56,200 bases of DNA from Deltaproteobacteria bacterium. Its GTDB lineage: Bacteria; Desulfobacterota; Syntrophia; Syntrophales; UBA5619. The notes beneath the pieces are model-generated. The model saw only the letters and a program-made list of their open reading frames with translations. It did not search any database and was not told where the DNA came from. Shown here piece after piece: positions 10,770-47,720 of this stretch. The stretch spans positions 1 through 56,200 of the forward strand of contig JAMDBG010000088.1 of NCBI GenBank assembly GCA_023487865.1, written 5' to 3'. A program made the position numbers and the translations under genes. Numbering within the stretch: position 1 is the first letter of the stretch; every line of letters starts with the position of its first letter.

Positions 10770-11681
10770 TCAGCGTAGAATCAAGGCAAATGATTTGACG
10801 CGTAGGACAGGATTATAGGACTGCTTCGACTCCGCCAGGTTGGGAAGATTCATATCGCTTTCCTTATTGATATATTGATATTCACTGAAGAGTCTTTTTG
10901 AACATTCATTATCCAGAAACTGATACAGACCTTTGATTTCCGAGAAGGCCTTTTCAAAATTGAGCGTTGCTGTCGTCCTGTTCAGCCGAGAGCCGATACC
11001 GAATGCCGAGACAGCACCGTCAATGCGAATCAGTATCCCTATCGATTCAAAGTGTTCGATATTTTTAAGTGTTGTAATCAGAGCCGCCTTCTCGCATGCG
11101 AGGCTGGAATTCTGATCGACGTCACAGTCGTGTTCCGAACACCAGATATCTAAAAACTGCAGGCACTCATCAATATGCTTCTGTTGAATATTCTCCACCG
11201 AAACGCGACCTTTCCTCAAGTATTCACGTGAAAACTGATGGATAAGATTCCGTTTCTTTGAAAATTTGTTGCCTTTGAGTTGGATCAGGTCTTCTGTAAG
11301 GTAGACGTAATCCGCAAATTCTCTTTGCTCTTCTATGGAGAAGAAGGACTCAAGTTCAGATCGTTCGAGCATGTCCAGATAATCTCCCGGGGCATACCAG
11401 TACTGAGTGAATCCCAGTTCACTGGCAAACCGGTGCATTTCCGCTGGCAAGAATACCCTTCCCCGTGAAACGGGGAGTATGAGATGTCGGTCCTCTGGAT
11501 GGTCTTCCGGTTCACCGGCGATGAAGAGAACCTCATTAACTACAGCATAACGGCTTCTGAAATTGAGAGTACTCCAGGCTATGAGGGGCGCTGGTGAATA
11601 AATACTGAGGCTGTAAGGTTGTTCTTCGAAATAAGTCTTCAGAATATTATAATCGGAAACCGTAAGAGGCGTAAAGTTCAT
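10770..11681 (-). CDS. DUF2156 (MprF C-terminal/aminoacyl-lipid-synthase-like, GNAT-fold) domain protein
   Basis: Resembles free-standing DUF2156 proteins: YVYLTEDLIQLKGNKFSKKRNLIHQFSREY...ECLQFLDIWC and FGIG...ATLNFEKA. I take the start as ATG 11681 (MNFTPL...), which overlaps the upstream stop as ATGA. Confidence 0.65.
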   Translation of the reverse strand: MNFTPLTVSDYNILKTYFEEQPYSLSIYSPAPLIAWSTLNFRSRYAVVNEVLFIAGEPEDHPEDRHLILPVSRGRVFLPAEMHRFASELGFTQYWYAPGDYLDMLERSELESFFSIEEQREFADYVYLTEDLIQLKGNKFSKKRNLIHQFSREYLRKGRVSVENIQQKHIDECLQFLDIWCSEHDCDVDQNSSLACEKAALITTLKNIEHFESIGILIRIDGAVSAFGIGSRLNRTTATLNFEKAFSEIKGLYQFLDNECSKRLFSEYQYINKESDMNLPNLAESKQSYNPVLRVKSFALILR

Positions 11682-12121
11682 TTTCTCTTCATCATTAACA
11701 TCGGGGTAGAGGTGCACATCTCCTGGAAACCAGCATGACGATAGAGGATGTCGGAACCCGGCTCAGCGATAAGTCCGATCCAAGCAATTCCGTCGGTGTA
11801 TAGTCGCTCCAGGAGTGTCTGAAGAATCAATTTCCCGATTCCCTGCCTCCTGCGGTCGATACGAACCGTTAAATCTTGAATATACGCATCGCTTATACCG
11901 TCACTAATTGCCCTTCCCATTCCGACGATATCATTTTCCTCCAAAGCAATAACAAAACAATGACTGCCGGCAATTAACTTCATTACCAAGTCTTTTCTGC
12001 AGTCATCCTCTACATGCCACCACCCTTGCGCCTGGTAAAGCGCGATGATCTGACGGATCTGCTCTTCGTTCGGTTCCCGAAGAAATACACACTGTATCTT
12101 GTTGTTATTACCTGTTTCCAT
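11678..12121 (-). CDS. GNAT family N-acetyltransferase
   Basis: Acetyl-CoA-binding block RRQGIGKLILQTLLERL. Start chosen at ATG 12121 (METGNNN, GAGG 4 nt upstream), because a promoter-like element lies inside the longer ORF that reaches 12202. Confidence 0.75.
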   Translation of the reverse strand: METGNNNKIQCVFLREPNEEQIRQIIALYQAQGWWHVEDDCRKDLVMKLIAGSHCFVIALEENDIVGMGRAISDGISDAYIQDLTVRIDRRRQGIGKLILQTLLERLYTDGIAWIGLIAEPGSDILYRHAGFQEMCTSTPMLMMKRK

Positions 12122-12175
12122 CAAGCCTCGTCTGTAATGGAGACTGGATTGCAAAAACGTCCGGTTGTTCGTAAA

Positions 12176-12202
12176 ATTATAGGATCTTAGCACCTGTGTC
12201 AA
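12176..12202 (-). promoter_or_regulatory. sigma70-like promoter candidate for the GNAT-DUF2156 bicistron
   Basis: Minus strand: perfect TTGACA (12202-12197) and perfect TATAAT (12181-12176), but with a short 15-nt spacer. Confidence 0.3.
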
Positions 12203-12236: not shown

Positions 12237-13037
12237 TTACAACCATCGTTTACGACGCCGATAGGATTTCACATCTGCGTATGACTTGATGTTGCCTGCT
12301 GCGGACATACCGAGATAAAATTCACGGATGTCCGGATTATCCCGTAGAATATCAGCCGATCCCTCCATGACGATTTTCCCGTTCTCCATGACGTAACCGT
12401 GGTGGGCAATCTGGAGGGCCATCCGGGCATTCTGCTCTACCAGGATAATAGTGGTCCCTTCTTCCTCGTTGATCCGGCGGATGATCCGGAAGATTTCAAT
12501 TACAACCAAAGGAGCAAGACCCAGCGAAGGTTCATCCAAAAGAAGCAATTCTGGGTGTGCCATTAGGGCGCGGCCCATGACCAACATCTGGAGTTCTCCA
12601 CCGCTGCAGTAGCCAGCAAGCCCCCGGCGCCGCTTCCAAAGAGCCGGAAAGTAGTGGTATACCTTTTCAAGGTCTGAACGGTAAGGTTTGCCCCATCTGG
12701 TGGCCGTCCCGACCCTGAGATTTTCTTCTATCGTCAGATACTTGAATGGCTGGCGTCCTTCCAAAACCTGTATGATCCCATTTCGGGTTATTGTTTCCGG
12801 TGCTTGATTCTGGAGTTCCCTTCCCTGATAGAGAATCGTCCCATCCGTTACCTTGCCGTTCTCCGGCTTCAGGAGTCCCGAAATGGCTTTGAGGGTTGTT
12901 GTTTTCCCCGCTCCGTTGCTTCCCAGGAGGGAAACAATTCTGTTCTTCTGGACGGAGAGGGACACGCCTTTGAGAACCTGGATCACATCGGAGTAAACAA
13001 CAGAAATATTATTCAACTGCAATAGCAGGTTTTCCAT
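12237..13037 (-). CDS. ABC transporter ATP-binding protein, LivF-like
   Basis: Walker A GSNGAGKTT, signature/Walker B SGGELQML...LLLDEPSLGLAP. Start taken at MENLLLQLNNISV (ATG 13037), 10 nt after the permease stop. Confidence 0.85.
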   Translation of the reverse strand: MENLLLQLNNISVVYSDVIQVLKGVSLSVQKNRIVSLLGSNGAGKTTTLKAISGLLKPENGKVTDGTILYQGRELQNQAPETITRNGIIQVLEGRQPFKYLTIEENLRVGTATRWGKPYRSDLEKVYHYFPALWKRRRGLAGYCSGGELQMLVMGRALMAHPELLLLDEPSLGLAPLVVIEIFRIIRRINEEEGTTIILVEQNARMALQIAHHGYVMENGKIVMEGSADILRDNPDIREFYLGMSAAGNIKSYADVKSYRRRKRWL

Positions 13038-13047
13038 ATAACGACCT

Positions 13048-14118
13048 TTAATAAGAGAACGGCCAGAGACGAAAACTCGAACGCGTGATCCGCCATAATT
13101 CCGCCAACCCGCGTGGTTCGATGAGAATGAACATGACAATGGCCAGACCAAAAATGAATTCTCGTAACGGTGCCATGTTCAGGCCAGACGCTGCGACAAT
13201 GCCAGAATTCATAAGGATACCGGTCATGAAACGCAGCGATTCGTTGAGCAGTGTGATGAAGACCGCACCATAAATAGATCCTGAGATGCTACCCAGTCCG
13301 CCAATAATGACCATAGCGATATACTCAACAGATAGGCTGAGATTGAACGGCTCAGCAGTGATGCTGCCCATGTAGGATGCCCACAGGGCGCCTGCAAAAC
13401 CGGCATAGAATGAACTGATCCCGAAAGAGAGGAGTTTATATCGGAAGATCGGTATCCCCATTCCTTCCGCGGCGCGATCATTATCACGGATGGCGATGAA
13501 AGCCCGCCCGTAACGGGTGCGCATTAAATTGACTGCTATCCATCCCATCCCTGCCAGAGCAAGAAAGATGAGGTAGTAAAATCCGAGATCGCCTTGAAGG
13601 GAAAAGGTCAGCAGCTTTGTTGGAGGAAGTGTTATGCCTGCCGTCCCCTTCGTTAAGGTGTCCCAATGGATAAGTAAATATTCGATGATAAACTGACCGG
13701 CTAAAGTGGCGATGGTTAGATAAAGCCCCTTCAGACGGCCGGAGGGGATCCCGAAGATCATACCGATCATTGCCGTTATCAGGCCTGCCAATGGGATAGT
13801 GACAAAGAAAGGGAGATGGAATCGGGTGGCAAGGATAGCCGCGGCATAGGCCCCAACGCCGAAGAACGCGCCATGGCCCAGTGAAATCTGCCCTGTGAAA
13901 CCGATCAGTATGTTGAGACCAATCGCGGCAATCGCTGCAATCCCGATCATGTTGATGATATAAAGCATGTAAGGGCTTGCAAGCCAAGGAACCGTTGTAA
14001 CGAGAAGCACAAAGCCGATGACACCCCAGAGGCGGCCAAAATCGGTTGTAAAGACAGTCAGCTCCTGTGTATAGCGCTCACGGAAATTACCACAGGGGTG
14101 AAGATGAAATTTTTTCAT
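13048..14118 (-). CDS. ABC transporter permease, LivM-like
   Basis: 356-aa polytopic membrane ORF between the LivH-like and LivF-like genes. Has the typical GQISLGHGAFFGVGAY block. Confidence 0.85.
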   Translation of the reverse strand: MKKFHLHPCGNFRERYTQELTVFTTDFGRLWGVIGFVLLVTTVPWLASPYMLYIINMIGIAAIAAIGLNILIGFTGQISLGHGAFFGVGAYAAAILATRFHLPFFVTIPLAGLITAMIGMIFGIPSGRLKGLYLTIATLAGQFIIEYLLIHWDTLTKGTAGITLPPTKLLTFSLQGDLGFYYLIFLALAGMGWIAVNLMRTRYGRAFIAIRDNDRAAEGMGIPIFRYKLLSFGISSFYAGFAGALWASYMGSITAEPFNLSLSVEYIAMVIIGGLGSISGSIYGAVFITLLNESLRFMTGILMNSGIVAASGLNMAPLREFIFGLAIVMFILIEPRGLAELWRITRSSFRLWPFSY

Positions 14119-14121
14119 AAT

Positions 14122-15000
14122 TCAGACCCGTTCAATCTCCTTCAGTCCGAAAAGACCATAAGGTTTTAAAAGTAAAATGAGCACCAGTATGACATAGGGA
14201 ACGACGTCACGAAGTGATGGCGAGAGGTAGCCACCGGTGAAAGTTTCTAAAAGACCAATGATGATCCCACCAATGATGGCACCGCCTATACTGTCAAGTC
14301 CTCCCAGGATGACAACAGGAAAAACCTTAAGACCGATAGCTGACAGATCGTGGACATTGACCCCGTTGATGATTCCCAAAACCATCCCGCTCATCCCGGC
14401 GACAAGTGCAGCAATCGCCCAGGAAAGGGCGAAAACACGCTTGACATGAACCCCGAGAGAGAGGGCGGCTCTCTGGTTGTCAGCTACGGACCGCATGTAG
14501 ATCCCCTGTGAGGAGAATTTAAAGAACAGGCCGAACAGCAGCAAAAAGAGCATTCCGATGACCAACGTTGCCGAGTAAACAGGCGGGATACGAACTACTC
14601 CCCAGTTTATCCCGAGCGTCTCAGGGAGAAAATTGGGATAGGTATGAAGATTCCCACCCCAGATGAGCAGGATGATCCCTTTGAACATTGCTGCCAATCC
14701 TACTGTCAACATGATGACAAAGATCAGTGGTTCGCCGATCAAAGGCCGGAGAAAGATCCTTTCAATCATTATACCGAGGAGAAAACAGCCGACGAGGGCC
14801 AATAGAAAAGCAAGAAGAAAGGGGAGCTTTGCCCAGACAATGAAAGCGAGAAAAAAATAGGCCCCGATCGCAAGCAGTTCCCCATGGGCAAAATTGAGTA
14901 CACTGGAGGATTTGAATATCATGACAAATCCCATTGCCGAAAGCCCGTATAGAAAGCCAACGGAGATCCCACCGACCAAAAGCTGAATAAAAAAATCCAT
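14122..15000 (-). CDS. ABC transporter permease, LivH-like
   Basis: 292-aa polytopic membrane ORF with N-terminus MDFFIQLLVGGISVGFLYGLSAMGFVMIF and block LNFAHGELLAIGAY. Confidence 0.85.
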   Translation of the reverse strand: MDFFIQLLVGGISVGFLYGLSAMGFVMIFKSSSVLNFAHGELLAIGAYFFLAFIVWAKLPFLLAFLLALVGCFLLGIMIERIFLRPLIGEPLIFVIMLTVGLAAMFKGIILLIWGGNLHTYPNFLPETLGINWGVVRIPPVYSATLVIGMLFLLLFGLFFKFSSQGIYMRSVADNQRAALSLGVHVKRVFALSWAIAALVAGMSGMVLGIINGVNVHDLSAIGLKVFPVVILGGLDSIGGAIIGGIIIGLLETFTGGYLSPSLRDVVPYVILVLILLLKPYGLFGLKEIERV

Positions 15001-15015
15001 ATCTGCCCTTTAGTT

Positions 15016-16944
15016 TCAAAAAACCTGCACTATATGTACGAGGGTATCAATTTCCCCCACCTGTCCATCGCGATAGCGGATCTTCCCTTTTACACGGATC
15101 TCTTCAGCATCGGAATACATCGCTTCGATGAGCTTTAGATAGAGACCATAGACAAAACGACGACGCACTTTACCCGTTCGTGTCAGTTCATCGTCATCCG
15201 CATCCAGAAGCTTATAGAGTAAAATAAATTTGTGTATCTTCATGACCTCCGGTAATTGTTCATTGACCTTGCGCACCTCTTTCAGGATCAGTTCCTCAAC
15301 GGCTGGCTGTTGTGAGAGATCCATATAGGTTGTATAGGGGATCATTCTTTCTTCAGCCCAACTTCCCGTATTTCCAAAATCGATGTTGATCATGACTGTC
15401 AGATAGGGCCGGCCTTCACCAAAGATTACCGACTCCTTGATAAAGGGACTGAACTTGAGACGCGTTTCTATAAAATCCGGAGAAAAGGCATCTCCGCTCT
15501 TGTTACGGATGATCTCCTCTTTGCGGCCGATGATCAACAGATGCCTACCACCATCGATGTACCCTGCATCGCCAGTCCGGAGCCAACCCTGAACAAAGGC
15601 CGCTTCAGTGGCCTGATAATCCTGATAATACCCCTGAAAGACGGAGGGGCTGAAAACCAGAACTTCCTGGTCTTCAGCAATTCGTATCTGAACTCCGGGA
15701 AGCGGCTTGCCGACTGTCTCCGGTTTCACTTCATCATCGGGTTGGATCTGAAATATCCCTGTCGCTTCAGTCAACCCATAGCATTGCTTCAGGTTGAGAC
15801 CGATCGCCCTGAAGAAACTGATCACATCGGGGCTGATGGGATGACCTCCCGTATAGGCGCTCTGAAATTGTGAACAGCCGATCCGGTCAAGAAGCGGTCG
15901 ATAGATCATCAATCCCGCGAGATGATGAAGGCCTTTAAGGAAAAGAGGTATTGGTTCCTTTTTGATCTGTCTGGCCAAAACAGCCCGTCCGATCTTTTCC
16001 GCTTCCCTGAATAGTCGGCGTTTGATCCAGCCCGCATCCGACATTTTGACCCTTATCCGGGAGGCGAGCTCCTCCCAGAAACGTGATGCGGTGATGATTC
16101 GCGCTGGACCGATTTCCCGGAAGTCCTCCATGATCGTTTCCGGTGTTTCCGGAAAGTTCATCGTCATGCCGCCAAGAAGCGCTACACCTAAACCCCACAT
16201 CTGATCCACAATCCATGCCGGCGGCGACATCGAGAGCCAGTTCTCGCCGGGCATGATGGAAACCGCCTTGACCCAGCTCTCCCCTATTGCAGTCAGATTT
16301 CGGTGCGACAGCATGGCAAGCTTGGGAAGACCCGTCGTACCGGAGGTCTGAATCATCAGAGCCGTTTCCTCCGGCTTCCCCTGCTGCAATTCCGAATCAA
16401 AAAGGCTAGGTCGTTCCCGATCCAGCTCTTCACCCATTTTCAACAACTCACGGAAAGAAATCAGCCATGGATCGCCTGCGCAGGATCCCATTCCTGTCGG
16501 ATCAATATAGATGACCCTACGCACATGATCCAGTTTTTGACGGGAAGAAATCAGTTTGTCGGCTTGCTCTTGGTCCTGTACAAAAACATACGCCGCCTGG
16601 ATGCGGTTCAATGAGACGGACAACTCTTCCGCAACGGCTGATGTGAAGAGGTTCAGGGTGACACCACCAATAGACTGTGAACCAAGCTCCGAAAAAAGCC
16701 ATTCCGGATGGTTGTTGATGATCACCCCCACCGATTCACCACGCCTACATCCCAAGGCAACCAATCCCAGAGCGGTATGCCTTACATACCGCAGGTAATC
16801 TTCCCAGTGATAGGTCTGCCAGATCCCGTAGGCCTTTTCCCTTATAGCTGCTCCTGCGGTGCCGTAACGCTCCGCTTGGGCCGCCAGAAGCTGGGGAAGT
16901 GTTCCATTAAAAGATGGATCCCGTTGTCCTTGTTCCTGTTGCAA
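15016..16944 (-). CDS. AMP-forming acyl-CoA synthetase/ligase embedded in the ABC operon
   Basis: 642-aa ORF with AMP-binding motif IQTSGTTGLPKLAMLSH, GYGLTE-like QCYGLTEATG, and LRTGDAGYID. Confidence 0.85.
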   Translation of the reverse strand: MQQEQGQRDPSFNGTLPQLLAAQAERYGTAGAAIREKAYGIWQTYHWEDYLRYVRHTALGLVALGCRRGESVGVIINNHPEWLFSELGSQSIGGVTLNLFTSAVAEELSVSLNRIQAAYVFVQDQEQADKLISSRQKLDHVRRVIYIDPTGMGSCAGDPWLISFRELLKMGEELDRERPSLFDSELQQGKPEETALMIQTSGTTGLPKLAMLSHRNLTAIGESWVKAVSIMPGENWLSMSPPAWIVDQMWGLGVALLGGMTMNFPETPETIMEDFREIGPARIITASRFWEELASRIRVKMSDAGWIKRRLFREAEKIGRAVLARQIKKEPIPLFLKGLHHLAGLMIYRPLLDRIGCSQFQSAYTGGHPISPDVISFFRAIGLNLKQCYGLTEATGIFQIQPDDEVKPETVGKPLPGVQIRIAEDQEVLVFSPSVFQGYYQDYQATEAAFVQGWLRTGDAGYIDGGRHLLIIGRKEEIIRNKSGDAFSPDFIETRLKFSPFIKESVIFGEGRPYLTVMINIDFGNTGSWAEERMIPYTTYMDLSQQPAVEELILKEVRKVNEQLPEVMKIHKFILLYKLLDADDDELTRTGKVRRRFVYGLYLKLIEAMYSDAEEIRVKGKIRYRDGQVGEIDTLVHIVQVF

Positions 16945-16963
16945 AGAAACTCAGTTCCCTTCA

Positions 16964-17791
16964 TTATATAGTATCTGCATCGCCGAGATAGGCTTTGATC
17001 ACTTCTGGATGACGGATGATCTCTTCAGGTGTTCCTTCCGTAAGTTTTTCACCAAAATTGAGCACCGCAATTCTCTTGGCGATACTCATCACAATCGACA
17101 TATCATGTTCGACAAGGATCATCGTTTGCCCCCAGGCACGGTTCAGTTCCAATAGAAAACGGACCATGTCTTCCTTCTCCTCTAGATTCATACCGGCAAA
17201 TGGCTCATCCAGGACAAGGAGAGTAGGTTCGAGTGCAAGGGCCCTACCGAGTTCAACACGTTTCATCATCCCGTATGGTAAAGAACCAACCGGTTTGTTG
17301 CGTAGGGACTGTATTTCCAGAAAGTCGATAATCTCTTCCAGTATCCGTCGATGCCGGATTTCTTCCTGACGCACGGACGGCAAGAAGAGGCTAGCCGGAC
17401 CTAACCCATAACTACAGTGGGTATGGCGGGCAAGAAAGAGATTAGAGAGAACGGTCATTCCTGGAAAAAGTTCTATATTTTGAAATGTCCGTCCGATTCC
17501 TATACCAACCAACTCGTGAGCAGGGAGATAGGTGATATCTTCTCCATTGAAGGTAATCTTTCCTTCCTGGGGCCGGTAAAATCCAGTAATACAGTTCAAA
17601 AGGCTGGTCTTTCCGGCACCGTTGGGTCCAATGACCGCAAGCAGTTCACCGTTCCGGACGGAGAGATCGATATTGCTTAGAGCAATCACCCCCCCGAAAC
17701 GGAGCGCTATGCCGCGGATCTCCAGTTCAGCCTTCCGCAAAGCTGTACCGCTTTTTTCATATATGGACGGTTTTCCCCGGAACGCCTTCAT
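16964..17791 (-). CDS. ABC transporter ATP-binding protein, LivG-like
   Basis: Walker A GPNGAGKTS, LPYGMMKRVELGRAL, Walker B LLVLDEPFAGM. Confidence 0.85.
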   Translation of the reverse strand: MKAFRGKPSIYEKSGTALRKAELEIRGIALRFGGVIALSNIDLSVRNGELLAVIGPNGAGKTSLLNCITGFYRPQEGKITFNGEDITYLPAHELVGIGIGRTFQNIELFPGMTVLSNLFLARHTHCSYGLGPASLFLPSVRQEEIRHRRILEEIIDFLEIQSLRNKPVGSLPYGMMKRVELGRALALEPTLLVLDEPFAGMNLEEKEDMVRFLLELNRAWGQTMILVEHDMSIVMSIAKRIAVLNFGEKLTEGTPEEIIRHPEVIKAYLGDADTI

Positions 17792-17868
17792 CTCCTGTTC
17801 CCCTTACCTCGCACCGATGCCCTGCAAGCCCTGCGGGCAGGGCTTGCAGGATTGAATCATGATGTCTC

Positions 17869-19068
17869 TTACTTTTGGAGTTGAATCTTTTCCTTGCCGG
17901 GAATGTAAAAATTGGTCAGAGGCGTGAAGGAACCATCCTCTTTTACCTGGACGATCCTGGCGCTGAAAGAGGCTCCGTGATCTGTCGGGGAGTATGTGAC
18001 GTTGGGAATCAGGCCGCCGAAATCCTCCTGTTTGAAAGATTCCATGGCACGATTGATAGTTTCGCGGTTGATCGCTTGGGATTTTTCGCTTGCTCGGGTC
18101 ATCGCTCGCTCCATGATCATGGCCACGGCCACCCCTTCCCAATAGGATGCGTCGAATCTATCGACAGTCTTATACCTTTTCCACAATTCCTGCATCACCT
18201 TCATCCCCGTGTTTTTGTCTGAGGGCAGACCGCCCGGAAATTGAATGCGGAGACGATTCCTGATCAGACCCTGGCCCATTTTGATAAAATCGGGATCGGT
18301 TGATGTCCACGTCCCGAAGAACGGCGGATCGTAACCGATACGGTCTGCGCTTCTGAAAGCAGTTATGATGGAGGCGGGAAGCATTTGCATAAAGATATAT
18401 TCAGCACCGCTTTTCTGCAGACGGAGAAGCTCTGTTGTCAGATCGACTGTTTTCGGTGGAAATTCTTCAACAGCAACGATGTTGACGTTCTTCTTCGCAG
18501 CGTATTCGCGACTCGGTTTGTGTATGGAGAGACCATAGGCATTGTTGTAAGTCAGGAGCCCCACTTTGGGCGCTTCCTTCCCCTTATGGATAGTCCGGAT
18601 ATAATCCAGCACAGCCTCACAGTCCATGCGATAGCTTCCAAAGGGCAGGTACATGTATTCAATCGGCGGTTCTAATATCTCCCAGCTTGTAGAGTAGTTG
18701 ATTGTCGGAATCTTGTATTGCTGAATGATCGGTTTAGCTGCAAGCCCCTCACCTGCCCCCCAGGTAGCGATCATGTCCACATTGTCCTGTACAGCGAATT
18801 TTCTCACAGCTGCCACAGCCTCAGGAACTTTGTAAGCGGTATCCACCAGGATCATCTCGATTTTATTACCGGCGATCCCGGCCTTAACCTCATTGACATA
18901 ACGGAAATAGTCCTGCTGACCCTTGGCATGAAACTGTCCCCAGGTAGAAGCAGGACCGGTCAGGTTGATAGCTGCACCGACCTTGATCGTCTTGGCCGTT
19001 CCTATATTCGGCCAGATCAACGCCACAGCAAGTAACGCCAAAAGGATCCTTCTGCATGCACTGTACAT
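17869..19068 (-). CDS. periplasmic substrate-binding protein, LivK/Peripla_BP_6-like
   Basis: Start placed at ATG 19068 (MYSACRRILLALLAVALIWPNIGTA signal peptide), preceded by AAGGGAGGGAG. The track's longer ORF reaching 19155 would read through two terminator hairpins. Confidence 0.85.
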   Translation of the reverse strand: MYSACRRILLALLAVALIWPNIGTAKTIKVGAAINLTGPASTWGQFHAKGQQDYFRYVNEVKAGIAGNKIEMILVDTAYKVPEAVAAVRKFAVQDNVDMIATWGAGEGLAAKPIIQQYKIPTINYSTSWEILEPPIEYMYLPFGSYRMDCEAVLDYIRTIHKGKEAPKVGLLTYNNAYGLSIHKPSREYAAKKNVNIVAVEEFPPKTVDLTTELLRLQKSGAEYIFMQMLPASIITAFRSADRIGYDPPFFGTWTSTDPDFIKMGQGLIRNRLRIQFPGGLPSDKNTGMKVMQELWKRYKTVDRFDASYWEGVAVAMIMERAMTRASEKSQAINRETINRAMESFKQEDFGGLIPNVTYSPTDHGASFSARIVQVKEDGSFTPLTNFYIPGKEKIQLQK

Positions 19069-19083
19069 CGTTCTCCCTCCCTT

Positions 19084-19114
19084 AATAAAAAAGGCCGTGA
19101 ATGAAACCACGGCC
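19084..19114 (-). terminator. intrinsic terminator hairpin T2 (in operon leader)
   Basis: Minus strand GGCCGTG-GTTTCATT-CACGGCC followed by TTTTTTATT. The U-tract abuts the RBS of the binding-protein gene. Confidence 0.6.
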
Positions 19115-19118
19115 TCCA

Positions 19119-19158
19119 CAAAAGAAAAGCCGTGGGCGGCATAAGGTCTGCCCACGGC
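19119..19158 (-). terminator. intrinsic terminator hairpin T1 (in operon leader)
   Basis: Minus strand GCCGTGGGC-AGACCTTATGCC-GCCCACGGC followed by TTTTCTTTTG. Confidence 0.6.
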
Positions 19159-19176
19159 CGACGTTCCTGAAAGGTT

Positions 19177-19272
19177 TTACAGACGCGGCGGGCAGACCCC
19201 AATAAAGAAGCTATTAAAGCCGATAAAAAAGCACCGCCGAATGTCTTTCATTATCTGTTTACATTCTGACAT
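19177..19272 (-). CDS. candidate Phe-rich leader peptide (31 aa; 33 aa if ATG 19278 is used)
   Basis: My translation is MSECKQIMKDIRRCFFIGFNSFFIGVCPPRL followed by a stop. GGGAG lies 6 nt upstream of ATG 19272. Five Phe codons fall within nine codons. The 3' end of the ORF overlaps the putative antiterminator arm. Confidence 0.3.
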   Translation of the reverse strand: MSECKQIMKDIRRCFFIGFNSFFIGVCPPRL

Positions 19273-19289
19273 CTGCATCTCCCGTGACG

Positions 19290-19318
19290 CGTATAAAACA
19301 GGCCGTAACTAATGTCAA
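19290..19318 (-). promoter_or_regulatory. sigma70-like promoter candidate for the ABC operon leader
   Basis: Minus strand TTGACA (19318-19313), 17-nt spacer, TATACG (19295-19290). Confidence 0.35.
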
Positions 19319-19339
19319 GGAAAAAATGATCAAATATGT

Positions 19340-20710
19340 TCATCGGGAGCCGATTCCCAGTTTCTCAGTCCGGTAATGCAGCGAATCGTAGCTGATCTTA
19401 AGCAGCTGGGAGGCTCGAGTCTTGGATCCTTGTGCCTTCAGCATGGCTTTTTCAATTAGGGTTTTTTCAAATTTTTCAAGTTCTTCATTCAGGTCGATGC
19501 CGGTATCCGGGAGTTCGGACAGGACGTCCCTCTCTTTTTTTGATACCTCTTGTGACAAAATAAGATTTTCGGGAAGGATAATATTTGACGTCTCTAAGGC
19601 AACACTACGTTCGATGATGTTTTCCAGCTCACGGATATTTCCCGGAAAGGGGTATTGCATCAGCAATTCTAAGGCATATGCCGATATCGTCTTGATTTCC
19701 TTTTCAAATTCATGAGAGTACTTTTCGATGAAGTGTTTGGTCAAGGTAGGAATATCCTCTTTCCTTTCCCTGAGGGGAGGCAGATGGAGAGGGATGACGT
19801 TCAGACGGTAGTAGAGGTCTTCCCGGAACAAGCCCGATTTTACATTATCAGCCAGATTCTTATTTGTTGCCGAGATAATGCGGACGTCAACATGAATGTC
19901 TTCTGCGTCTCCGATACGACGGAATGTTTTTTCTTGGACAACCCTTAAGAGTTTGACTTGAAGAAGCGGGGGGAGCTCACCAATCTCATCAAGGAATACA
20001 CTCCCTCCGCGAGCAGCTTCAAACAGTCCGGCTTTGTCGGTGTAAGCTCCGGTAAAAGATCCTTTGATGTAACCGAACAGCTCGCTTTCGAGGAGATTCT
20101 CCGGAATACCGCCGCAGTTGATCACCACAAAAGGCATCTGTCTGCGGGAACTGTTTTCATGAATCGCTCGGGCGACAAGTTCCTTGCCTGTTCCGCTCTC
20201 TCCTAAAATCAGGACGTTTGCCGGGGTATCGGCCACTTTTTTGATTGTCGCATAGAGCTTGACCATCTCCCGACTGTTGCCGATCATTTTTCCGAAACCT
20301 GCTGTCTGGCCCACCTCTTTGAGAAAAAGTGCATCGTCACGCTTTACGCCTTTTTTGGTCAGGGCATTGCGGATGATTGTCTTGAGATCCTCGATTGCAA
20401 AATCCTTTTCGATGTAATCGTAAGCCCCTTCGTTCATGGCGGTTACTGCCGTATCTCCGCAGGCGTATGCCGTAATCAGAATAACCGTGGTTTCCGGAGA
20501 AAGATCTTTGACCTCGCGGAGAAAAGCGATTCCGTCCATCTTCGGCATTTTGAGGTCTGTAATGATCAGATCGAAATTTTCCTTCCGGCATCGGGCGAGG
20601 GCTTTCCCCCCATCGCCGGCCGTGCTGACTTTGTATCCTTCTTCCGTCAGCATAATCTCCAGTAGTTCTCTCATCCCCTGGTCGTCATCCACCACAAGGA
20701 TTTTTACCAT
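19340..20710 (-). CDS. sigma54-dependent response regulator (NtrC/PilR family)
   Basis: Receiver domain KILVVDDD...ITDLKMPKMDG, AAA+ domain GESGTGKE, ESELFGY.KGSFTGA, and a C-terminal Fis-type HTH. ATG 20710 has GGGAGG 6 nt upstream; the track start at 20716 is a TTG. Confidence 0.9.
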   Translation of the reverse strand: MVKILVVDDDQGMRELLEIMLTEEGYKVSTAGDGGKALARCRKENFDLIITDLKMPKMDGIAFLREVKDLSPETTVILITAYACGDTAVTAMNEGAYDYIEKDFAIEDLKTIIRNALTKKGVKRDDALFLKEVGQTAGFGKMIGNSREMVKLYATIKKVADTPANVLILGESGTGKELVARAIHENSSRRQMPFVVINCGGIPENLLESELFGYIKGSFTGAYTDKAGLFEAARGGSVFLDEIGELPPLLQVKLLRVVQEKTFRRIGDAEDIHVDVRIISATNKNLADNVKSGLFREDLYYRLNVIPLHLPPLRERKEDIPTLTKHFIEKYSHEFEKEIKTISAYALELLMQYPFPGNIRELENIIERSVALETSNIILPENLILSQEVSKKERDVLSELPDTGIDLNEELEKFEKTLIEKAMLKAQGSKTRASQLLKISYDSLHYRTEKLGIGSR

Positions 20711-20748
20711 ATGCAACCTCCCTAACTCCTTTAAAACCGCTGCAAATT

Positions 20749-22425
20749 CTATGTATCAATTGCCGGGAGCCATATGGTGAATCGTGTCCCCTTTCCCGAT
20801 TCGCTTTGCATATGAATCTTGCCCCCATAAGCTTCCGTGATCCGGCTGACTACTGCTAAACCAAGTCCTGTTCCGGTTTCCCGGGTTGTATAAAAAGGTT
20901 CGAAGATTTTTTCAAAATCCTGCATTCTGATACCGACACCTGTATCGCCTATGTTAATTTCTATACCTTCTCTTGCTCCGTACCGGGCCAGATGTCCTTC
21001 AATCTTCAGCAATCCGCCCTCCGGCATGGCCTGAACCGCGTTGAGAATCAGATTCCACAGAGCCTGCCTGATCTCCATTTTATTGGCTCTGATATTGAGA
21101 GGTTCATCGGTTAAAGACATAACGAGATCCAGCCGATCGTTCCAGTCGGCAACGCAACGCAATGATTCTATGACTTCCCGGATGGTTTCCCTGATGTCGA
21201 GTAACTCACGGATGCCGGGAGCCGGTCTGGCAATCAAAAGAAAATCCTTCAGGAAGCTCTCCAGCTGATCCTTTCCACGAAGGATAATCTGCATTAATCT
21301 CGCATTGGTTTCATTACTTGCAAAGTCACCTCGTAGCATCTGAATCGAGCCACCGATGGAGGCCAGCGGATTCCGGATCTCATGTGCAAGACCTGCTGCC
21401 ATCTCGCCGATGAAGGCAAGTCTTCGGCTTTTTTCCAATGACTCTTTCATTTCATTGATGGTCGTCAGATCCTGAAACACGATGATGTTTCCGATCATTA
21501 CACCAGAGGGATCCCTTAGCGGTGAAACAGAGCCGCCGAGAATCAGTCTTTTCATTTCAGAGGTTATAAAGGCTGTTTCAAAGCGGGTTTTTGTCAGCGA
21601 TCTTTGCCCATTTTCATCAAATTTGCTTTGCAGAGGGGGAGGATATATAAAAAAATCTGATAATTTACGATTTTCTATTTCACGAAAAGACAGACCGGTA
21701 ATTTCGGTGGCGGCTCGATTGAATGATTTTATCTGCCCGTTAAGGTTAACGGTCAGAATGCCCGTATCCACGGACTCAATGATACTCTGATGGAGAAGAC
21801 CGAGCTGTTCAAAGGCTCCCTGTTTTTCCGCAAGAAGGGTCCTGGTTTTCCTCTCTTGCTCGACGACGAAACTCGCTAGAAAGGCGATGAGATAGAAGGA
21901 AAGGATATGGGTAATGATCCTGGTAAACACATAACCGGCATTTAGCGGATAATCCGATAGGTGATCAGCAAAGAAAGGGTATATCATCCCGTAGAATTCC
22001 AGATCAGCAAAACAACCGTAAAAAATACCTGCAATCGAGGCGATGATAAAACCACCCTTTCTTGCCAGAAAAATGACTGAGTAAATGACAACAAGGGGAT
22101 AGAAAACAGAATAGATGCTGCGGACGCCTCCGGTGGCATACACCATCGCTGTAACCAATGCGATATCACAGATGCTCTGAATGTATATATTCGTAATGAT
22201 ATTCGGGAGGTATTTCGGAAGCAAAAGGTAAATTATGGAAAGGATATATGTCAGAAGAATCGTGTTAAATAGGATGGAAACGGATATTGCCGACTGTGAC
22301 TCCAGCTTCATGATTTCTATGAATGTGGCCAACCCCAGGAGAAAAGTGACGATCATCACCCTCGCCAACATCAGCCAACGAAAGGGTGATGTCAGGTATT
22401 CAGGGTATTTTGAATTATCGGCCAT
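20749..22425 (-). CDS. sensor histidine kinase, PilS-like architecture (polytopic N-terminus, PAS, HisKA, HATPase)
   Basis: About 190 aa of hydrophobic helices, a PAS-like region, H-box EMAAGLAHEIRNPL, N-box NLILNAVQAM, and G-boxes GDTGVGI and GTGLGLAVV. Confidence 0.85.
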   Translation of the reverse strand: MADNSKYPEYLTSPFRWLMLARVMIVTFLLGLATFIEIMKLESQSAISVSILFNTILLTYILSIIYLLLPKYLPNIITNIYIQSICDIALVTAMVYATGGVRSIYSVFYPLVVIYSVIFLARKGGFIIASIAGIFYGCFADLEFYGMIYPFFADHLSDYPLNAGYVFTRIITHILSFYLIAFLASFVVEQERKTRTLLAEKQGAFEQLGLLHQSIIESVDTGILTVNLNGQIKSFNRAATEITGLSFREIENRKLSDFFIYPPPLQSKFDENGQRSLTKTRFETAFITSEMKRLILGGSVSPLRDPSGVMIGNIIVFQDLTTINEMKESLEKSRRLAFIGEMAAGLAHEIRNPLASIGGSIQMLRGDFASNETNARLMQIILRGKDQLESFLKDFLLIARPAPGIRELLDIRETIREVIESLRCVADWNDRLDLVMSLTDEPLNIRANKMEIRQALWNLILNAVQAMPEGGLLKIEGHLARYGAREGIEINIGDTGVGIRMQDFEKIFEPFYTTRETGTGLGLAVVSRITEAYGGKIHMQSESGKGTRFTIWLPAIDT

Positions 22426-28707: not shown

Positions 28708-30597
28708 ATGGCAAAATGGAACAGAGATAAAAAAGTACTCGATCATGAGCATACAAACTTCTGGAAGTTTGATCTCAAGGAGGTGTCGGAGCCAAACCTT
28801 CAAAAAGATGTCTTTCCCTATGATGAGGTCTGCCGGATCGATTTCGACCATCGGATCATCTCCATAAATCCTGCGGAGGATATGTTTATTACCGACACGA
28901 CGTTCCGGGACGGACAGCAGGCAAGACCTCCATATACGGTGCAGCAGATTGCGGATCTCTATTCCCTGATGAGCCGATTGGGTGGACCCAACGGTGTGAT
29001 CCGTCAGTCCGAATTCTTCCTATATAGCGTCAAAGATCGGGAAGCGGTGGAAAAATGCCAGTCCCTCGGCTTACGCTATCCGGAAATCACCGGCTGGATC
29101 AGGGCCAGCACCGACGATGTCCCTCTGGTCAAACAGGCAGGACTGAAGGAGACCGGGATTCTCACTTCCGTGTCCGACTACCATATTTTTCTTAAGTTAG
29201 GCAAGACACGTAAACAAGCGCTGGAGGACTATCTCGGGATCGTCCGTTCCATCCTCGCTGCAGGCATCATCCCCCGCTGTCATTTTGAAGACATCACGAG
29301 AGGTGACATTTACGGTTTCTGCATCCCCTTTGCCATCGAACTGATGAGATTGAGAGAGGAAAGCGGTATCGACATCAAGATCAGACTCTGCGACACGATG
29401 GGATACGGTGTAACCTATCCTGGTGCTGCCCTTCCCAGAAGCGTCGACAAACTCGTCAGGGCGTTCATTGAGGACGCGGGAGTTCCCGGTCATCTTCTCG
29501 AGTGGCATGGTCACAATGATTTTCACAAGGCGATGATCAATGCGACCACCGCCTGGCTCTATGGTTGTAGCGCGGCAAATACCACCCTGCTCGGTCTGGG
29601 TGAACGGACGGGAAATCCGCCCATGGAAGGATTGATCATCGAATATATCAGTCTCCGCGGAAACGCAAACGGGATAGATACGACCGTGATCACTGATATT
29701 GCGCGCTATTTCGAGAAGGAAATCGGGATTCGGATTCCGCCGAATTTCCCGCTTGTCGGGGCGGATTTCAATGTGACCAGGGCAGGTGTTCATGTCGACG
29801 GTCTGATCAAGTGTGAAGAAATCTACAATATCTTCGACACGACAAAACTCCTGAAGCGACCGATTATCCCGATGATCACCGATAAGTCGGGTAAGGCGGG
29901 GATCGCTTTCTGGATCAACACCCATCTTGGACTCACGGGCGATAACACCATCGATAAGCGTCACCCAGGTGTCTCCCGAATCCATAAGTGGATTACCGAG
30001 GAATATGAGGGCGGTCGGATGACCAGCATCTCGAACGAGGAACTGGAAAAGCGGGTAAGAAAATACCTGCCCGAGCTTTTCATGTCCGATCTGGAGAAAA
30101 TCAAGTTCATGGCGGCTCAGGCGGCCGTTTCGGTGGTGAAAAAGGTTATCGACCATCCGGACATGAAGACTATGAAACCGGAACTACAGGAGCCGGTCAT
30201 GCAGCAGTTCATGGAAGAGAATCCTTCGATCCAATTCGCCTATGTCGTCGACATGAACGGCCGCAAAACAACACGAAACATCACCAATATTGCCGACCGT
30301 CCCAAGTATGAAAACTACGGGATCGGCACGGATCAATCGGACCGCGAATGGTTCATCAAACCGCTTCAGTCCGGCAAGATCCATGTTACTGAATTCTATA
30401 TTTCCAAGATGACCGGAGCGCTTTGCATTACCGTCTCTGCGCCGATCATGGACGAGCGGGATGAGATGGTAGGGATATTTGGTGTCGACATCAAGTTCGA
30501 GGATTGGGTCAAGCGTGCGGAAGATATTGCCGAGGCGACACAGATCGCCCTCCGAGGGGAGTATGAGGCAAAATCGCGATCGGACCGATGGCTGTAA
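28708..30597 (+). CDS. Re-citrate synthase-like DRE-TIM metallolyase (homocitrate/isopropylmalate synthase family) fused to a C-terminal Cache/PAS-like domain
   Basis: 629-aa ORF. Catalytic blocks are ITDTTFRDGQQ and EWHGHNDFH, plus LGLGERTGN. Residues ~460-629 carry a Cache-type pattern: AYVVDMNGRK...SDREWFIKPLQSGKIHVTEFYISKMTGALCITVSAPIMDERDEMVGIFGVDIKFED. No signal peptide or TM helix. Confidence 0.7.
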   Translation: MAKWNRDKKVLDHEHTNFWKFDLKEVSEPNLQKDVFPYDEVCRIDFDHRIISINPAEDMFITDTTFRDGQQARPPYTVQQIADLYSLMSRLGGPNGVIRQSEFFLYSVKDREAVEKCQSLGLRYPEITGWIRASTDDVPLVKQAGLKETGILTSVSDYHIFLKLGKTRKQALEDYLGIVRSILAAGIIPRCHFEDITRGDIYGFCIPFAIELMRLREESGIDIKIRLCDTMGYGVTYPGAALPRSVDKLVRAFIEDAGVPGHLLEWHGHNDFHKAMINATTAWLYGCSAANTTLLGLGERTGNPPMEGLIIEYISLRGNANGIDTTVITDIARYFEKEIGIRIPPNFPLVGADFNVTRAGVHVDGLIKCEEIYNIFDTTKLLKRPIIPMITDKSGKAGIAFWINTHLGLTGDNTIDKRHPGVSRIHKWITEEYEGGRMTSISNEELEKRVRKYLPELFMSDLEKIKFMAAQAAVSVVKKVIDHPDMKTMKPELQEPVMQQFMEENPSIQFAYVVDMNGRKTTRNITNIADRPKYENYGIGTDQSDREWFIKPLQSGKIHVTEFYISKMTGALCITVSAPIMDERDEMVGIFGVDIKFEDWVKRAEDIAEATQIALRGEYEAKSRSDRWL

Positions 30598-47632: not shown

Positions 47633-47720
47633 TGGTGCCTGGGGCGGGAATCGAACCCGCACAGCCTCAAGGACCGAGGGATTTTAAGTCCCTTGCGTCT
47701 ACCAATTCCGCCACCCAGGC
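47633..47720 (-). tRNA. tRNA-Leu (anticodon UAA), class II with long variable arm, CCA encoded
   Basis: Reverse complement folds as GCCTGGG-TG-GCGG-AATTGGTAGA-CGC-A-AGGGA-CTTAAAA-TCCCT-(16-nt variable arm)-GCGGG-TTCGATT-CCCGC-CCCAGGC-A-CCA. All four stems pair perfectly. Confidence 0.92.

Follow-up and report, generated by a model that had tools for sequence, protein, structure and literature searches.

In Escherichia coli, pheA (leader pheL) and pheST are controlled by transcription attenuators with a short open reading frame (ORF) in which phenylalanine (Phe) codons are interrupted by other residues (the Phe run of pheL reads FFFAFFFTF), mutually exclusive hairpins 1:2, 2:3 and 3:4, an intrinsic terminator, and the charging of tRNA(Phe) as input. 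The E. coli trpL leader works with four segments in the same way: segment 2 is exposed when the ribosome stalls, so that 2:3 pre-empts terminator 3:4, and hidden once the ribosome has reached the stop codon, and an untranslated leader forms 1:2 and 3:4; the trpL antiterminator wins kinetically, not necessarily thermodynamically. Here we describe a region of about 270 nucleotides (nt) on the minus strand that separates an NtrC-type regulator gene (stop codon at 19340) from a binding-protein gene (ATG at 19068). It lies in a 56,200-nt stretch of contig JAMDBG010000088.1 (assembly GCA_023487865.1, a deltaproteobacterium of the order Syntrophales), which as a whole is called the window below. With a probability of about 0.85, this region is a ribosome-mediated transcription attenuator with a Phe-codon leader peptide.

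As far as sequence can tell, the defining features of the trp/phe/his attenuator class are present at this locus, with moderate support for segment 1. It shares with pheA and pheST the interrupted Phe codons, the exclusive hairpins, intrinsic termination and, by prediction, the Phe-tRNA input. Nevertheless, there is no homology to these leaders in sequence or structure (Rfam Phe_leader gives no hit even at E<=10). The element precedes a binding-protein ATP-binding cassette (ABC) transporter with an acyl-coenzyme A (CoA) ligase and not pheA or pheST, it carries two tandem terminators (T1 and T2) instead of one, the antiterminator strand lies inside its leader ORF, and its scaffold is common to Trp- and Tyr-codon leaders of other operons. 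Compared with trpL, pairing 2:3 is also thermodynamically stronger than T1, segments 5 and 6 add the second terminator, and the regulatory codons follow segment 1 and precede segment 2 instead of forming part of segment 1. What appears new relative to the classical attenuators is thus the set of regulated genes, the lineage, one scaffold with swapped aromatic codons, and two chained terminators under one ORF.

Other described systems resemble the element in part. T-box riboswitches likewise combine a tRNA-charging input with a terminator/antiterminator output, and swap their specifier across an amino-acid regulon; here, however, the specifier is a run of translated codons and not a single codon read by tRNA binding. 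Vitreschak and co-workers are said to have predicted, in 2004, amino-acid-specific attenuators upstream of transporters. Such predicted elements have only one terminator and share neither sequence nor lineage with ours. ABC-leaders ahead of transporters are also described in PMC2965389. In Bacillus subtilis, a leader-peptide/terminator-antiterminator element likewise precedes the ABC transporter operon bmrCD but, according to PMC4191407, it senses translation-inhibiting antibiotics and not one amino acid. Serial attenuation steps in one leader, governed by short-ORF translation, occur as well in Salmonella mgtCBR, for which the abstract of PMC3641672 describes two separate short ORFs and different signals; the single ORF of the window leader would instead control two look-alike intrinsic terminators via chained pairings. 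None of the Rfam leader families was found at E<=10 in positions 18500-20000, at gathering score in the window, or in eight sister loci described below, and no T-box was hit in the same searches. The Rfam searches gave only terminator-driven noise (RybB, suhB and SorX below threshold) and tRNAs. Our literature search found no description of the attenuator family to which the element belongs beyond one passing sentence in Gurvich et al. 2010 (PMC3082878), according to which Desulfobacterium autotrophicum "potentially" uses a pheL gene; earlier comparative studies of the Russian school may touch on it. Aromatic attenuators are not treated by Rodionov et al. 2004 in their work on delta-proteobacterial regulons.

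The proposed mechanism involves six RNA segments (Table 1). Transcription would begin at a conserved sigma-70 promoter, with a predicted start site about 10-15 nt upstream of the leader ORF. When Phe-tRNA(Phe) is ample, the ribosome would reach the stop codon and cover segment 2. Segments 3 and 4 would then pair to form T1, a polymerase that gets past T1 would meet T2 (5:6), and the operon would be off. When Phe-tRNA(Phe) is scarce, the ribosome would stall at the early Phe codons (19230-19216) and leave segment 2 free to take nascent segment 3 (GGUCUGCCC:GGGCAGACC, -30.5 kcal/mol), so that T1 would lose its 5' arm. Segment 4, now free, could capture segment 5 before segment 6 exists, so that T2 would be cancelled too, and with both terminators cancelled the polymerase would enter the binding-protein/ABC/acyl-CoA-ligase operon. 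In an untranslated leader, 1:2 would pair, and T1 and T2 would both form. Termination at T1 and T2 and its dependence on tRNA charging are predictions from the sequence.

An initial annotation, made from the letters of the window, had proposed a pheA/pheST-type Phe attenuator here. The promoter, Shine-Dalgarno sequence, mini-ORF, T1 and T2 all lie where it had placed them on the minus strand, and the complementarities it quoted (19198-19190 with 19153-19145, 19239-19234 with 19191-19186, and the 3' arm of T1 with the 5' arm of T2) are exact; in the last of these, GCCGUGG of segment 5 (19113-19107) matches CCACGGC of segment 4 (19135-19129). The position given for GGTCTGCCC is also right, but its description as the last mini-ORF codons is not, as it covers codons 25-27 of 31. 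An additional in-frame ATG at 19278 leaves no spacing from the Shine-Dalgarno sequence. The U-tract of T2 abuts the ribosome-binding site (RBS) of the binding-protein gene and leaves no room for a promoter between them, again as annotated. The 222-nt leader folds at -81.2 kcal/mol, compared with -66.1 +/- 4.4 for shuffled sequences (z = -3.45, none of 200 shuffles as good). A consensus terminator scan calls T2 and the 4:5 hairpin and misses T1 because of its 12-nt loop. The hairpin pattern GCCGTGG..CCACGGC occurs once in the 56-kilobase window, with zero occurrences expected. A genome-wide repeated "mobile terminator" was considered and rejected, since this hairpin is single in the window and GGTCTGCC together with the leader is single as well.

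Next, we examined orthologous loci, taking one genome per species. This gave 80 loci with binding proteins 72-90% identical to that of the window, labelled nearly all as Syntrophales, Syntrophaceae, Smithella or Deltaproteobacteria. Three of the contigs end too early, which left 77 loci to be judged, each with 150 nt or more ahead of the binding-protein gene. Promoter, leader ORF and T1 are kept in all 77. An alignment was built from 71 of the orthologous leaders, chosen by the motif GUCUGCC; T2 is found in 63 of them and is missing in eight Smithella-like loci. TTGAC(A/T)-N17/18-TATAnn stands at the equivalent position in 44 of the 71, and the others retain TTGAC(A/T) with variants of the -10 hexamer such as TATGAA or TAGAAA. 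An AGGAG- or GGAG-like motif precedes the leader ATG by 5-9 nt in most relatives.

In more than 25 orthologous loci, promoter, leader and hairpins accompany the operon with no regulator gene within about 2.7 kilobases upstream, and in four others an insert of 2.4 kilobases separates the regulator from the leader, which remains with the operon. Since the leader is present where the regulator is absent or 2.4 kilobases away, it belongs to the transporter operon and not to the regulator. This bears on a different explanation, in which the hairpins terminate the two-component regulator genes and a sigma-54 promoter under the NtrC-type regulator drives the operon. Its attraction lies in the genes immediately upstream (a sigma-54-dependent response regulator preceded by a histidine kinase) and in a GG-N10-GC string, read by eye, within T1 (tGGGCAGaccttATGCc). 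The spacing of this string is not kept in three relatives (L001, L002 and L004), however, and TGGCACG-N4-TTGCW has no match within two mismatches in the intergenic positions 19069-19340; the single match to the sigma-54 consensus in the whole window is weak and lies elsewhere (39266-39281). A sigma-54 promoter in T1 was rejected on these grounds. Moreover, a conserved sigma-70 promoter stands between the regulator stop and the leader, and the leader accompanies the operon even if the regulator is missing or distant. The initial annotation had named hairpins that merely terminate the regulator gene as a finding that would undo its proposal; the regulator-less loci contradict it, and the whole explanation has a practically negligible likelihood.

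Comparison of the leader ORFs revealed a clear coding signature. Their pattern can be written FFxFFxFFxxVC: counted from Val, Phe fills positions -10, -9, -7, -6, -4 and -3 in 43-68 of the 71 leaders, and each leader carries 4-8 Phe. The Phe codons comprise 327 TTT and 61 TTC. Where a TTT codon has changed by one base, the new base is a C in the third codon position 58 times, in the first once and in the second twice. Frame 0 is open in 70 of 71 orthologues and the other two frames in 19 and 5, and alignment gaps within the ORF are 3, 6 or 9 nt long. The stop codon lies exactly six codons past the Val of the invariant Val-Cys in 69 of 71. This pattern indicates that the mini-ORF is a true coding sequence constrained for Phe codons. 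The initial annotation had cautioned that a T-rich spacer may mimic Phe codons; because the substitutions are of the synonymous TTT/TTC, coding type, this caveat is removed, and the conservation of the mini-ORF and its Phe codons in relatives, which it had asked about, proves to be strong. The spacings are compatible with a ribosome footprint: the last Phe codon lies 9 nt upstream of GUCUGCC in 60 of 71 loci and the first one 30 nt upstream in 41, 15-22 nt separate the end of the stop codon from the T1 5' arm, and segment 2 of the window ends 7 nt upstream of the stop codon.

Conservation of the ORF could alternatively mean that its product is a small hydrophobic peptide with a function of its own (as a micro-protein or in trans), the hairpins being ordinary terminators or stabilisers and amino acids not being sensed. 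The C-terminal tail VC(L/P)xx(S/L)-stop is indeed fixed in 69 of 71 leaders, and trans-acting leader peptides exist, peTrpL being an example (PMC7298713). The N-terminal half, on the other hand, is conserved neither in sequence nor in length, and the tail is explained at the RNA level, as sister elements read GGUCUGCC as Gly-Leu-Pro. Two orthologous leaders (L071 and L076) even stop ahead of the tail (MAIELINRNSINFFFFG-stop). What is conserved is the aromatic codon content only, and it tracks the downstream pathway, while two strong terminators without an intervening promoter demand antitermination. We therefore regard such a peptide as very unlikely in place of attenuation; a trans role in addition to it may exist.

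The fixed distance from the Phe block to the stop codon, and the Pro-Pro near the C-terminus in the window and its close relatives, might also fit a nascent peptide that arrests the ribosome on free Phe or another small molecule, as TnaC does, with uncharged tRNA not being the signal. We give scarcely any weight to this. Most relatives have Leu-Leu or Leu-Pro in place of Pro-Pro, and family members do not keep one peptide frame. The leaders also carry a run of codons for the regulatory amino acid itself, in which TTT and TTC exchange freely, and this is the hallmark of tRNA-charging sensors. Furthermore, tna attenuation relies on Rho-dependent termination, whereas the terminators here are intrinsic, and an arrest in the tail on ample Phe would cover segment 2 and lead to termination, which is the outcome of normal translation and adds nothing. 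A TnaC-type, Rho-dependent system was rejected because the frame over the motif varies, the tail is missing in L071 and L076, and both terminators are intrinsic.

The RNA pairings show compensatory change in part and near-invariance in part. In T1, 95.9% of alignment cells are paired, with compensatory double changes from U-A to C-G in nine loci; T2 is paired in 91.8% of cells, also with compensatory double changes. In both terminators, then, the stems show compensatory changes between relatives, where the initial annotation had suggested a check for covariation. The 9 nt past the stem contain on average 7.3 U in T1 and 7.7 in T2. The antiterminator core 2:3 (GGUCUGCC:GGCAGACC) is near-invariant, its positions 2-9 being paired in at least 86 of 88 unique scaffolds, and 42 of 45 substitutions in the core preserve pairing, mostly as wobble. 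GUCUGCC is invariant in all 71 aligned leaders, which were selected by that very motif. Antiterminator 2:3 and the 5' arm of T1 have GGGC in common. One locus (L053) shows a compensated departure from the motif, GGUCUACC:GGUAGACC. L071 and L076, the two leaders without the tail, carry a compensated CCUAC:GUAGG in which segments 2, 3 and 4 change together (GUGGG to GUAGG, CCCAC to CCUAC), and their ORF closes at UAG directly before GUCUGCC; judged by sequence, this is a natural case of triple compensation. Since chained segments that pair with two partners tolerate only wobble-compatible changes, the stem sequence is near-frozen, and these stems illustrate how chained alternative pairings may freeze an RNA sequence.

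Segment 1 lies directly 5' of the Phe block, and its pairing with segment 2 differs by clade (CGGCGGG:CCCGCCG, CAGGCAG:CUGCCUG and UAUCAGG:CCUGAUA). The mean duplex energy of 1:2 is -18.2 kcal/mol, compared with -14.3 for shuffled segment 1, and it is better by more than 3 kcal/mol in 40 of 71 loci. The support for the predicted sequestration of segment 2 by segment 1 in the untranslated leader is moderate.

Energies of the alternative folds were compared, as the initial annotation had advised. The window hairpins reach -19.2 (1:2), -30.5 (2:3), -20.9 (T1), -16.4 (4:5) and -17.7 kcal/mol (T2), and the family means are -28.0 (2:3), -21.7 (T1), -14.3 (4:5) and -16.4 kcal/mol (T2); in the window, antiterminator 2:3 is more stable than T1. 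A ribosome at the first Phe codon was represented by masking the RNA to 13 nt beyond that codon. With this mask, 2:3 is the ground state of the window leader (-55.6 kcal/mol, compared with -46.7 for T1+T2), while with a stop-codon mask T1+T2 is the sole state formed. Over the family, 2:3 forms in 41 of 71 leaders under the first-Phe mask and in none under the stop mask or the last-Phe mask. These masking folds reproduce the proposed logic. Together with the coding signature, the compensatory changes and the sister leaders described below, they support the Phe attenuator first proposed.

Several observations weigh against this reading. The -35/-10 pair is not called by a consensus promoter scan, as the -10 hexamer has no T at position 6, and this hexamer is non-canonical (TATAnn). 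T1 is still preferred under the first-Phe mask in 26 of 71 loci, and 2:3 is preferred without any ribosome in 20. Equilibrium minimum-free-energy modelling, being ambiguous in about 40% of loci, was discarded as a stand-alone test, and a kinetic argument is needed: because equilibrium folding alone gives no decisive switch, the order of synthesis must matter. A ribosome stalled at the last two Phe codons, whose closeness to segment 2 the initial annotation had noted, would block the antiterminator (2:3 in none of 71 under the last-Phe mask). Consequently, induction would be possible solely via the early Phe codons. Finally, structure-based substrate inference is indecisive for the binding protein and the ligases, and the role of the operon in Phe metabolism is hypothetical.

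The relay from T1 to T2 through 4:5 deserves separate treatment, and we consider it somewhat probable. Its complementarity, noted in the initial annotation, holds, with 90.9% of 4:5 cells paired and a few double changes. Two results speak against it. The control pairing 3:6, which has no proposed role, is paired in 87.8% of cells; T2 is a look-alike of T1, hence the high complementarity of the control, and the relay is only weakly distinguishable from such resemblance. The covariation score modestly favours 4:5, at 0.194 (reached by 6 of 500 shuffles) compared with 0.067 for 3:6 (65 of 500); as proof of the relay, covariation was abandoned, undermined by the control. Further, once 2:3 has formed in the window, T2 (-17.7) slightly beats 4:5 (-16.4 kcal/mol), and the whole state 2:3+T2 is better than 2:3+4:5 by 3.7 kcal/mol. 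Because T2 beats 4:5 at equilibrium, the relay must be kinetic, and in classical attenuators such as the trp leader a weaker antiterminator that wins kinetically is the norm.

Both the 3:6 control and the equilibrium advantage of T2 would be expected if T1 alone were the Phe-regulated attenuator and T2 were independent, T1-like by duplication and without a 4:5 relay. In that case, T2 might terminate constitutively but partially, stabilise the 5' end as a hairpin, or be targeted by some other factor. The eight Smithella-like loci without T2, and a Trp-leader locus (L170) that also has none, point in the same direction. We hold this alternative to be possible, though doubtful. T2 is strong (family mean -16.4 kcal/mol, 7.7 U in 9 nt) and abuts the RBS, so that operon expression is hardly possible without a bypass; since no promoter follows this strong terminator, T2 needs one, and 4:5 is the sole evident candidate. 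T1-like T2 arms, which a free-standing hairpin would not require, are kept in Syntrophales, Desulfobacterales and high-GC lineages ahead of different operons, and the diverged T2 of one sister locus (L177) retains, as read by eye, 8 base pairs of complementarity to segment 4. Covariation, too, is somewhat better for 4:5 than for 3:6. The main argument for the relay would be precisely that a T1-like T2 persists across orders and operons, as a relay requires. If it operates, the apparent control of two tandem terminators by one leader peptide should cut basal read-through and keep inducibility, which may be of use in synthetic biology.

We then looked for the element ahead of other operons. A metagenome scan with the pattern GGTCTGCC-N20-50-CCGYGGGCRGA returned 120 loci, about 95 of them chance matches; filtering for an aromatic ORF, a T1 3' arm and a U-run left about 25 true leaders. 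In these, a promoter is followed by a mini-ORF whose stop codon lies a few codons past GGUCUGCC, by T1 and usually by T2. As listed in Table 1, several precede genes of aromatic biosynthesis; in L157, the ORFs further downstream are presumably AroE- and AroA-like. In the Trp-leader locus L170, four consecutive Trp codons sit on the GGUCUGCC/GGGCAGA scaffold with T1, and a repeat-containing spacer of about 390 nt, where an extra promoter is possible, separates T1 from iorA. The 514-amino-acid ligase of L137 is about equally like oxalate-, feruloyl-, coumarate- and fatty-acyl-CoA ligases. As the sister loci were selected by sequence pattern, a covariance-model hit among them would be circular. 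To avoid the bias of the pattern, a further sample was drawn by protein homology to the aldolase, which gave aro operons on four contigs (L201-L204), labelled, where a label exists, as Desulfatirhabdiaceae, Desulfobacterales or Desulfosarcina. All four carry an F/Y/W-rich leader with T1 and T2 (at 1100-1500 in each). Throughout the family, leaders are F/Y/W-rich, F-rich or WWWW, and their codon content matches the downstream pathway, which is what an amino-acid-specific attenuator predicts and therefore supports one. These sister elements at aromatic biosynthesis genes are the strongest independent evidence for attenuation.

The same data speak to the idea that the conserved GGUCUGCC/GGGCAGACC/GCCGUGG is a protein- or ligand-binding site (TRAP-, PyrR- or riboswitch-like) and the T-rich ORF incidental. 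Classical attenuators usually conserve pairing only, and the stems here keep their primary sequence to an unusual degree from one operon and order to another. Members of the family read GGUCUGCC in different frames, as Val-Cys or as Gly-Leu-Pro, and the motif is thus conserved as RNA, not as peptide. High stem conservation is, however, what dual-partner segments would give, as these allow only wobble-compatible changes, and such changes are observed. L202, found without any pattern, has a changed 2:3 (CCCGCGG:CCGAGGG) with the architecture kept. With no Rfam match, no aptamer-like multi-helix junction, a strong coding signature and codon content that tracks the pathway, a binding site of this kind is hardly credible.

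The window element thus appears to be the Phe-specific member of an aromatic attenuator family in relatives among sulfate reducers and syntrophs. It would place an aromatic amino-acid regulon of Syntrophales and Desulfobacterales under a shared attenuator module that is absent from Rfam. More speculatively, the six-segment scaffold, found in Syntrophales, Desulfobacterales and some high-GC relatives, might be a modular, regulon-wide attenuator of Desulfobacterota that is re-targeted by codon swap: F/Y/W for the common aro pathway, W for iorAB with ABC and aryl-acetate-CoA-ligase genes, and F for the window operon, which would then scavenge aryl-acid precursors of Phe. Four high-GC scaffolds (L091, L106, L108 and L179) have -10 hexamers such as TACAGT or TAGAGT, CCGCGG-type arms in T1 and T2, and almost no U-tract after T1.

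Table 1. Elements of the leader region and regulated operon in the window, and leaders of sister loci
Feature	Position (strand)	Details
Predicted sigma-70-type promoter	19290..19318 (-)	TTGACA 19318-19313, 17-nt spacer, TATACG 19295-19290
Shine-Dalgarno sequence of leader ORF	19279..19283 (-)	GGGAG, 6 nt before ATG 19272
Leader mini-ORF	19177..19272 (-)	31 codons + TAA (19179-19177); encodes MSECKQIMKDIRRCFFIGFNSFFIGVCPPRL-stop
Phe-codon block	19204..19230 (-)	TTT TTT ATC GGC TTT AAT AGC TTC TTT; 5 Phe in 9 codons
Segment 1	19231..19241 (-)	holds CGGCGG 19239-19234; predicted partner of segment 2 without ribosome (anti-antiterminator)
Segment 2	19186..19199 (-)	GGGUCUGCCCGCCG; last third of leader ORF; predicted 5' strand of antiterminator
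CCGCCG	19191-19186 (-)	exact complement of CGGCGG 19239-19234
GGTCTGCCC	19198-19190 (-)	exact complement of GGGCAGACC 19153-19145
Segment 3	19145..19158 (-)	T1 5' arm GCCGUGGGC 19158-19150 overlaps antiterminator 3' strand GGGCAGACC 19153-19145
Terminator T1	(-)	GCCGTGGGC 19158-19150, N12, GCCCACGGC 19137-19129, then TTTTCTTTT 19128-19120
Segment 4	19120..19137 (-)	T1 3' arm GCCCACGGC 19137-19129 + U-tract UUUUCUUUU 19128-19120
Segment 5	19107..19117 (-)	T2 5' arm GGCCGUG 19114-19108
Terminator T2	(-)	GGCCGTG 19114-19108, N8, CACGGCC 19099-19093, then TTTTTTATT 19092-19084
Segment 6	19084..19099 (-)	T2 3' arm CACGGCC 19099-19093 + U-tract UUUUUUAUU 19092-19084
Binding-protein RBS and ATG 19068	19066..19083 (-)	AAGGGAGGG, contains GGGAGGG; directly abuts T2 U-tract
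Regulated operon	12237..19068 (-)	six genes, ABC transporter + acyl-CoA ligase
Peripla_BP_6 binding protein	17869-19068 (-)	
LivG-like ATPase	16964-17791 (-)	
FadD11-like AMP-binding ligase	15016-16944 (-)	642 amino acids
LivH-like permease	14122-15000 (-)	
LivM-like permease	13048-14118 (-)	
LivF-like ATPase	12237-13151 (-)	
Sister leader L143		ends in FGKAFYLFFYYFAAMVCPFGWG-stop; DAHP synthase, then prephenate dehydrogenase
Sister leader L108		ends in CWSSFYFAEVCPGALS-stop; DAHP synthase
Sister leader L157		ends in RFFYFHWYFYYWFRTGLPGVSLT-stop; ADH-synthase-type aldolase, DHQ synthase II, chorismate mutase/prephenate dehydratase (PheA)
Sister leader L166		contains QFFGCWFYFWFYYAGVCP; ADH-synthase-type aldolase as in L157
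Sister leader L177		ends in RFWFFSYYYYYFYGRGLPGR-stop; ADH-synthase-type aldolase as in L157
Sister leader L095		MLRYIAGRFFCFYTFFGKGLP-stop; chorismate-mutase-like gene
Sister leader L137/L169		ends in GFYSFFFIFCRVCPLCL-stop; 514-amino-acid AMP-binding ligase
Sister leader L170	5700-14496 (metagenome contig)	MGGQLLNIWWWWCKEKGGVCP-stop, WWWW; iorA (608 amino acids), iorB (170 amino acids), livHMGF-like genes, two PaaK-like aryl-acetate-CoA ligases

The gene order of the regulated operon is identical in three relatives (L102, L103 and L125). Since a Phe attenuator implies it, the operon would help to restore Phe, either by uptake of Phe itself or by uptake and CoA activation of an aryl acid. Among solved structures, 3LKB, described as a "probable branched-chain amino acid" binding protein, comes nearest to the binding protein of the window (E = 1.6e-28), and this kinship may suit plain Phe import; far weaker structural matches of the window protein include proteins which we take to be aromatic-acid binders. 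No close solved relative of the 642-amino-acid ligase was found in the structure comparison. The position of the ligase gene within the ABC gene set points to a carboxylic acid that is taken up and activated with CoA, and the Trp-leader operon of L170, with iorAB, ABC genes and aryl-acetate-CoA ligases, by analogy suggests the same. In rumen bacteria and methanogens, CoA esters of aryl acids are reductively carboxylated by IOR-type enzymes. By analogy, and tentatively, a phenylacetate-like acid could be imported, activated with CoA and carboxylated reductively by an IOR-type enzyme encoded elsewhere, there being no IOR gene within the window. Under such salvage, itself doubtful, the window operon would not be a branched-chain amino-acid importer, as LivK-type ABC operons with a ligase are routinely annotated. 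The Trp-leader iorAB/aryl-CoA-ligase operon and the Phe-leader operon together suggest that aryl-acid salvage might be induced at shortage of aromatic amino acids. In either case, the attenuator would provide a functional label, Phe supply, for a widespread operon type of anaerobic syntrophs, the LivK-type ABC transporter with an embedded acyl-CoA ligase.

Just past livF, positions 10770-12202 (-) contain two overlapping genes, one encoding a GNAT acetyltransferase and the other a free-standing LPG_synthase_C (DUF2156) protein; the DUF2156 fold is that of an aminoacyl-tRNA-dependent transferase. These genes were rejected as operon members: in the Smithella-like L102 the pair does not follow livF, and in the window a promoter-like TTGACA-N15-TATAAT precedes it (about 12165-12200). 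Directly upstream of the leader, positions 19340-22425 (-) encode a histidine kinase with PilS-like transmembrane and PAS regions and a sigma-54-dependent NtrC/AtoC-like response regulator; about half of the relatives show the same synteny between this pair and the operon.

Elsewhere in the window, an ORF of 629 amino acids (28708-30597, plus strand) joins an HMGL-like domain of the pyruvate carboxyltransferase/HMG-CoA lyase type to a C-terminal Cache/PDC sensor, an unusual pairing. An ORF of 484 amino acids (5629-7083, plus strand), with no Pfam match at E<=1e-5, lies between AIR-synthase-related and phosphofructokinase genes. Rfam and ARAGORN searches of the window gave a single hit, a tRNA-Leu with anticodon UAA at 47633-47720 on the minus strand.

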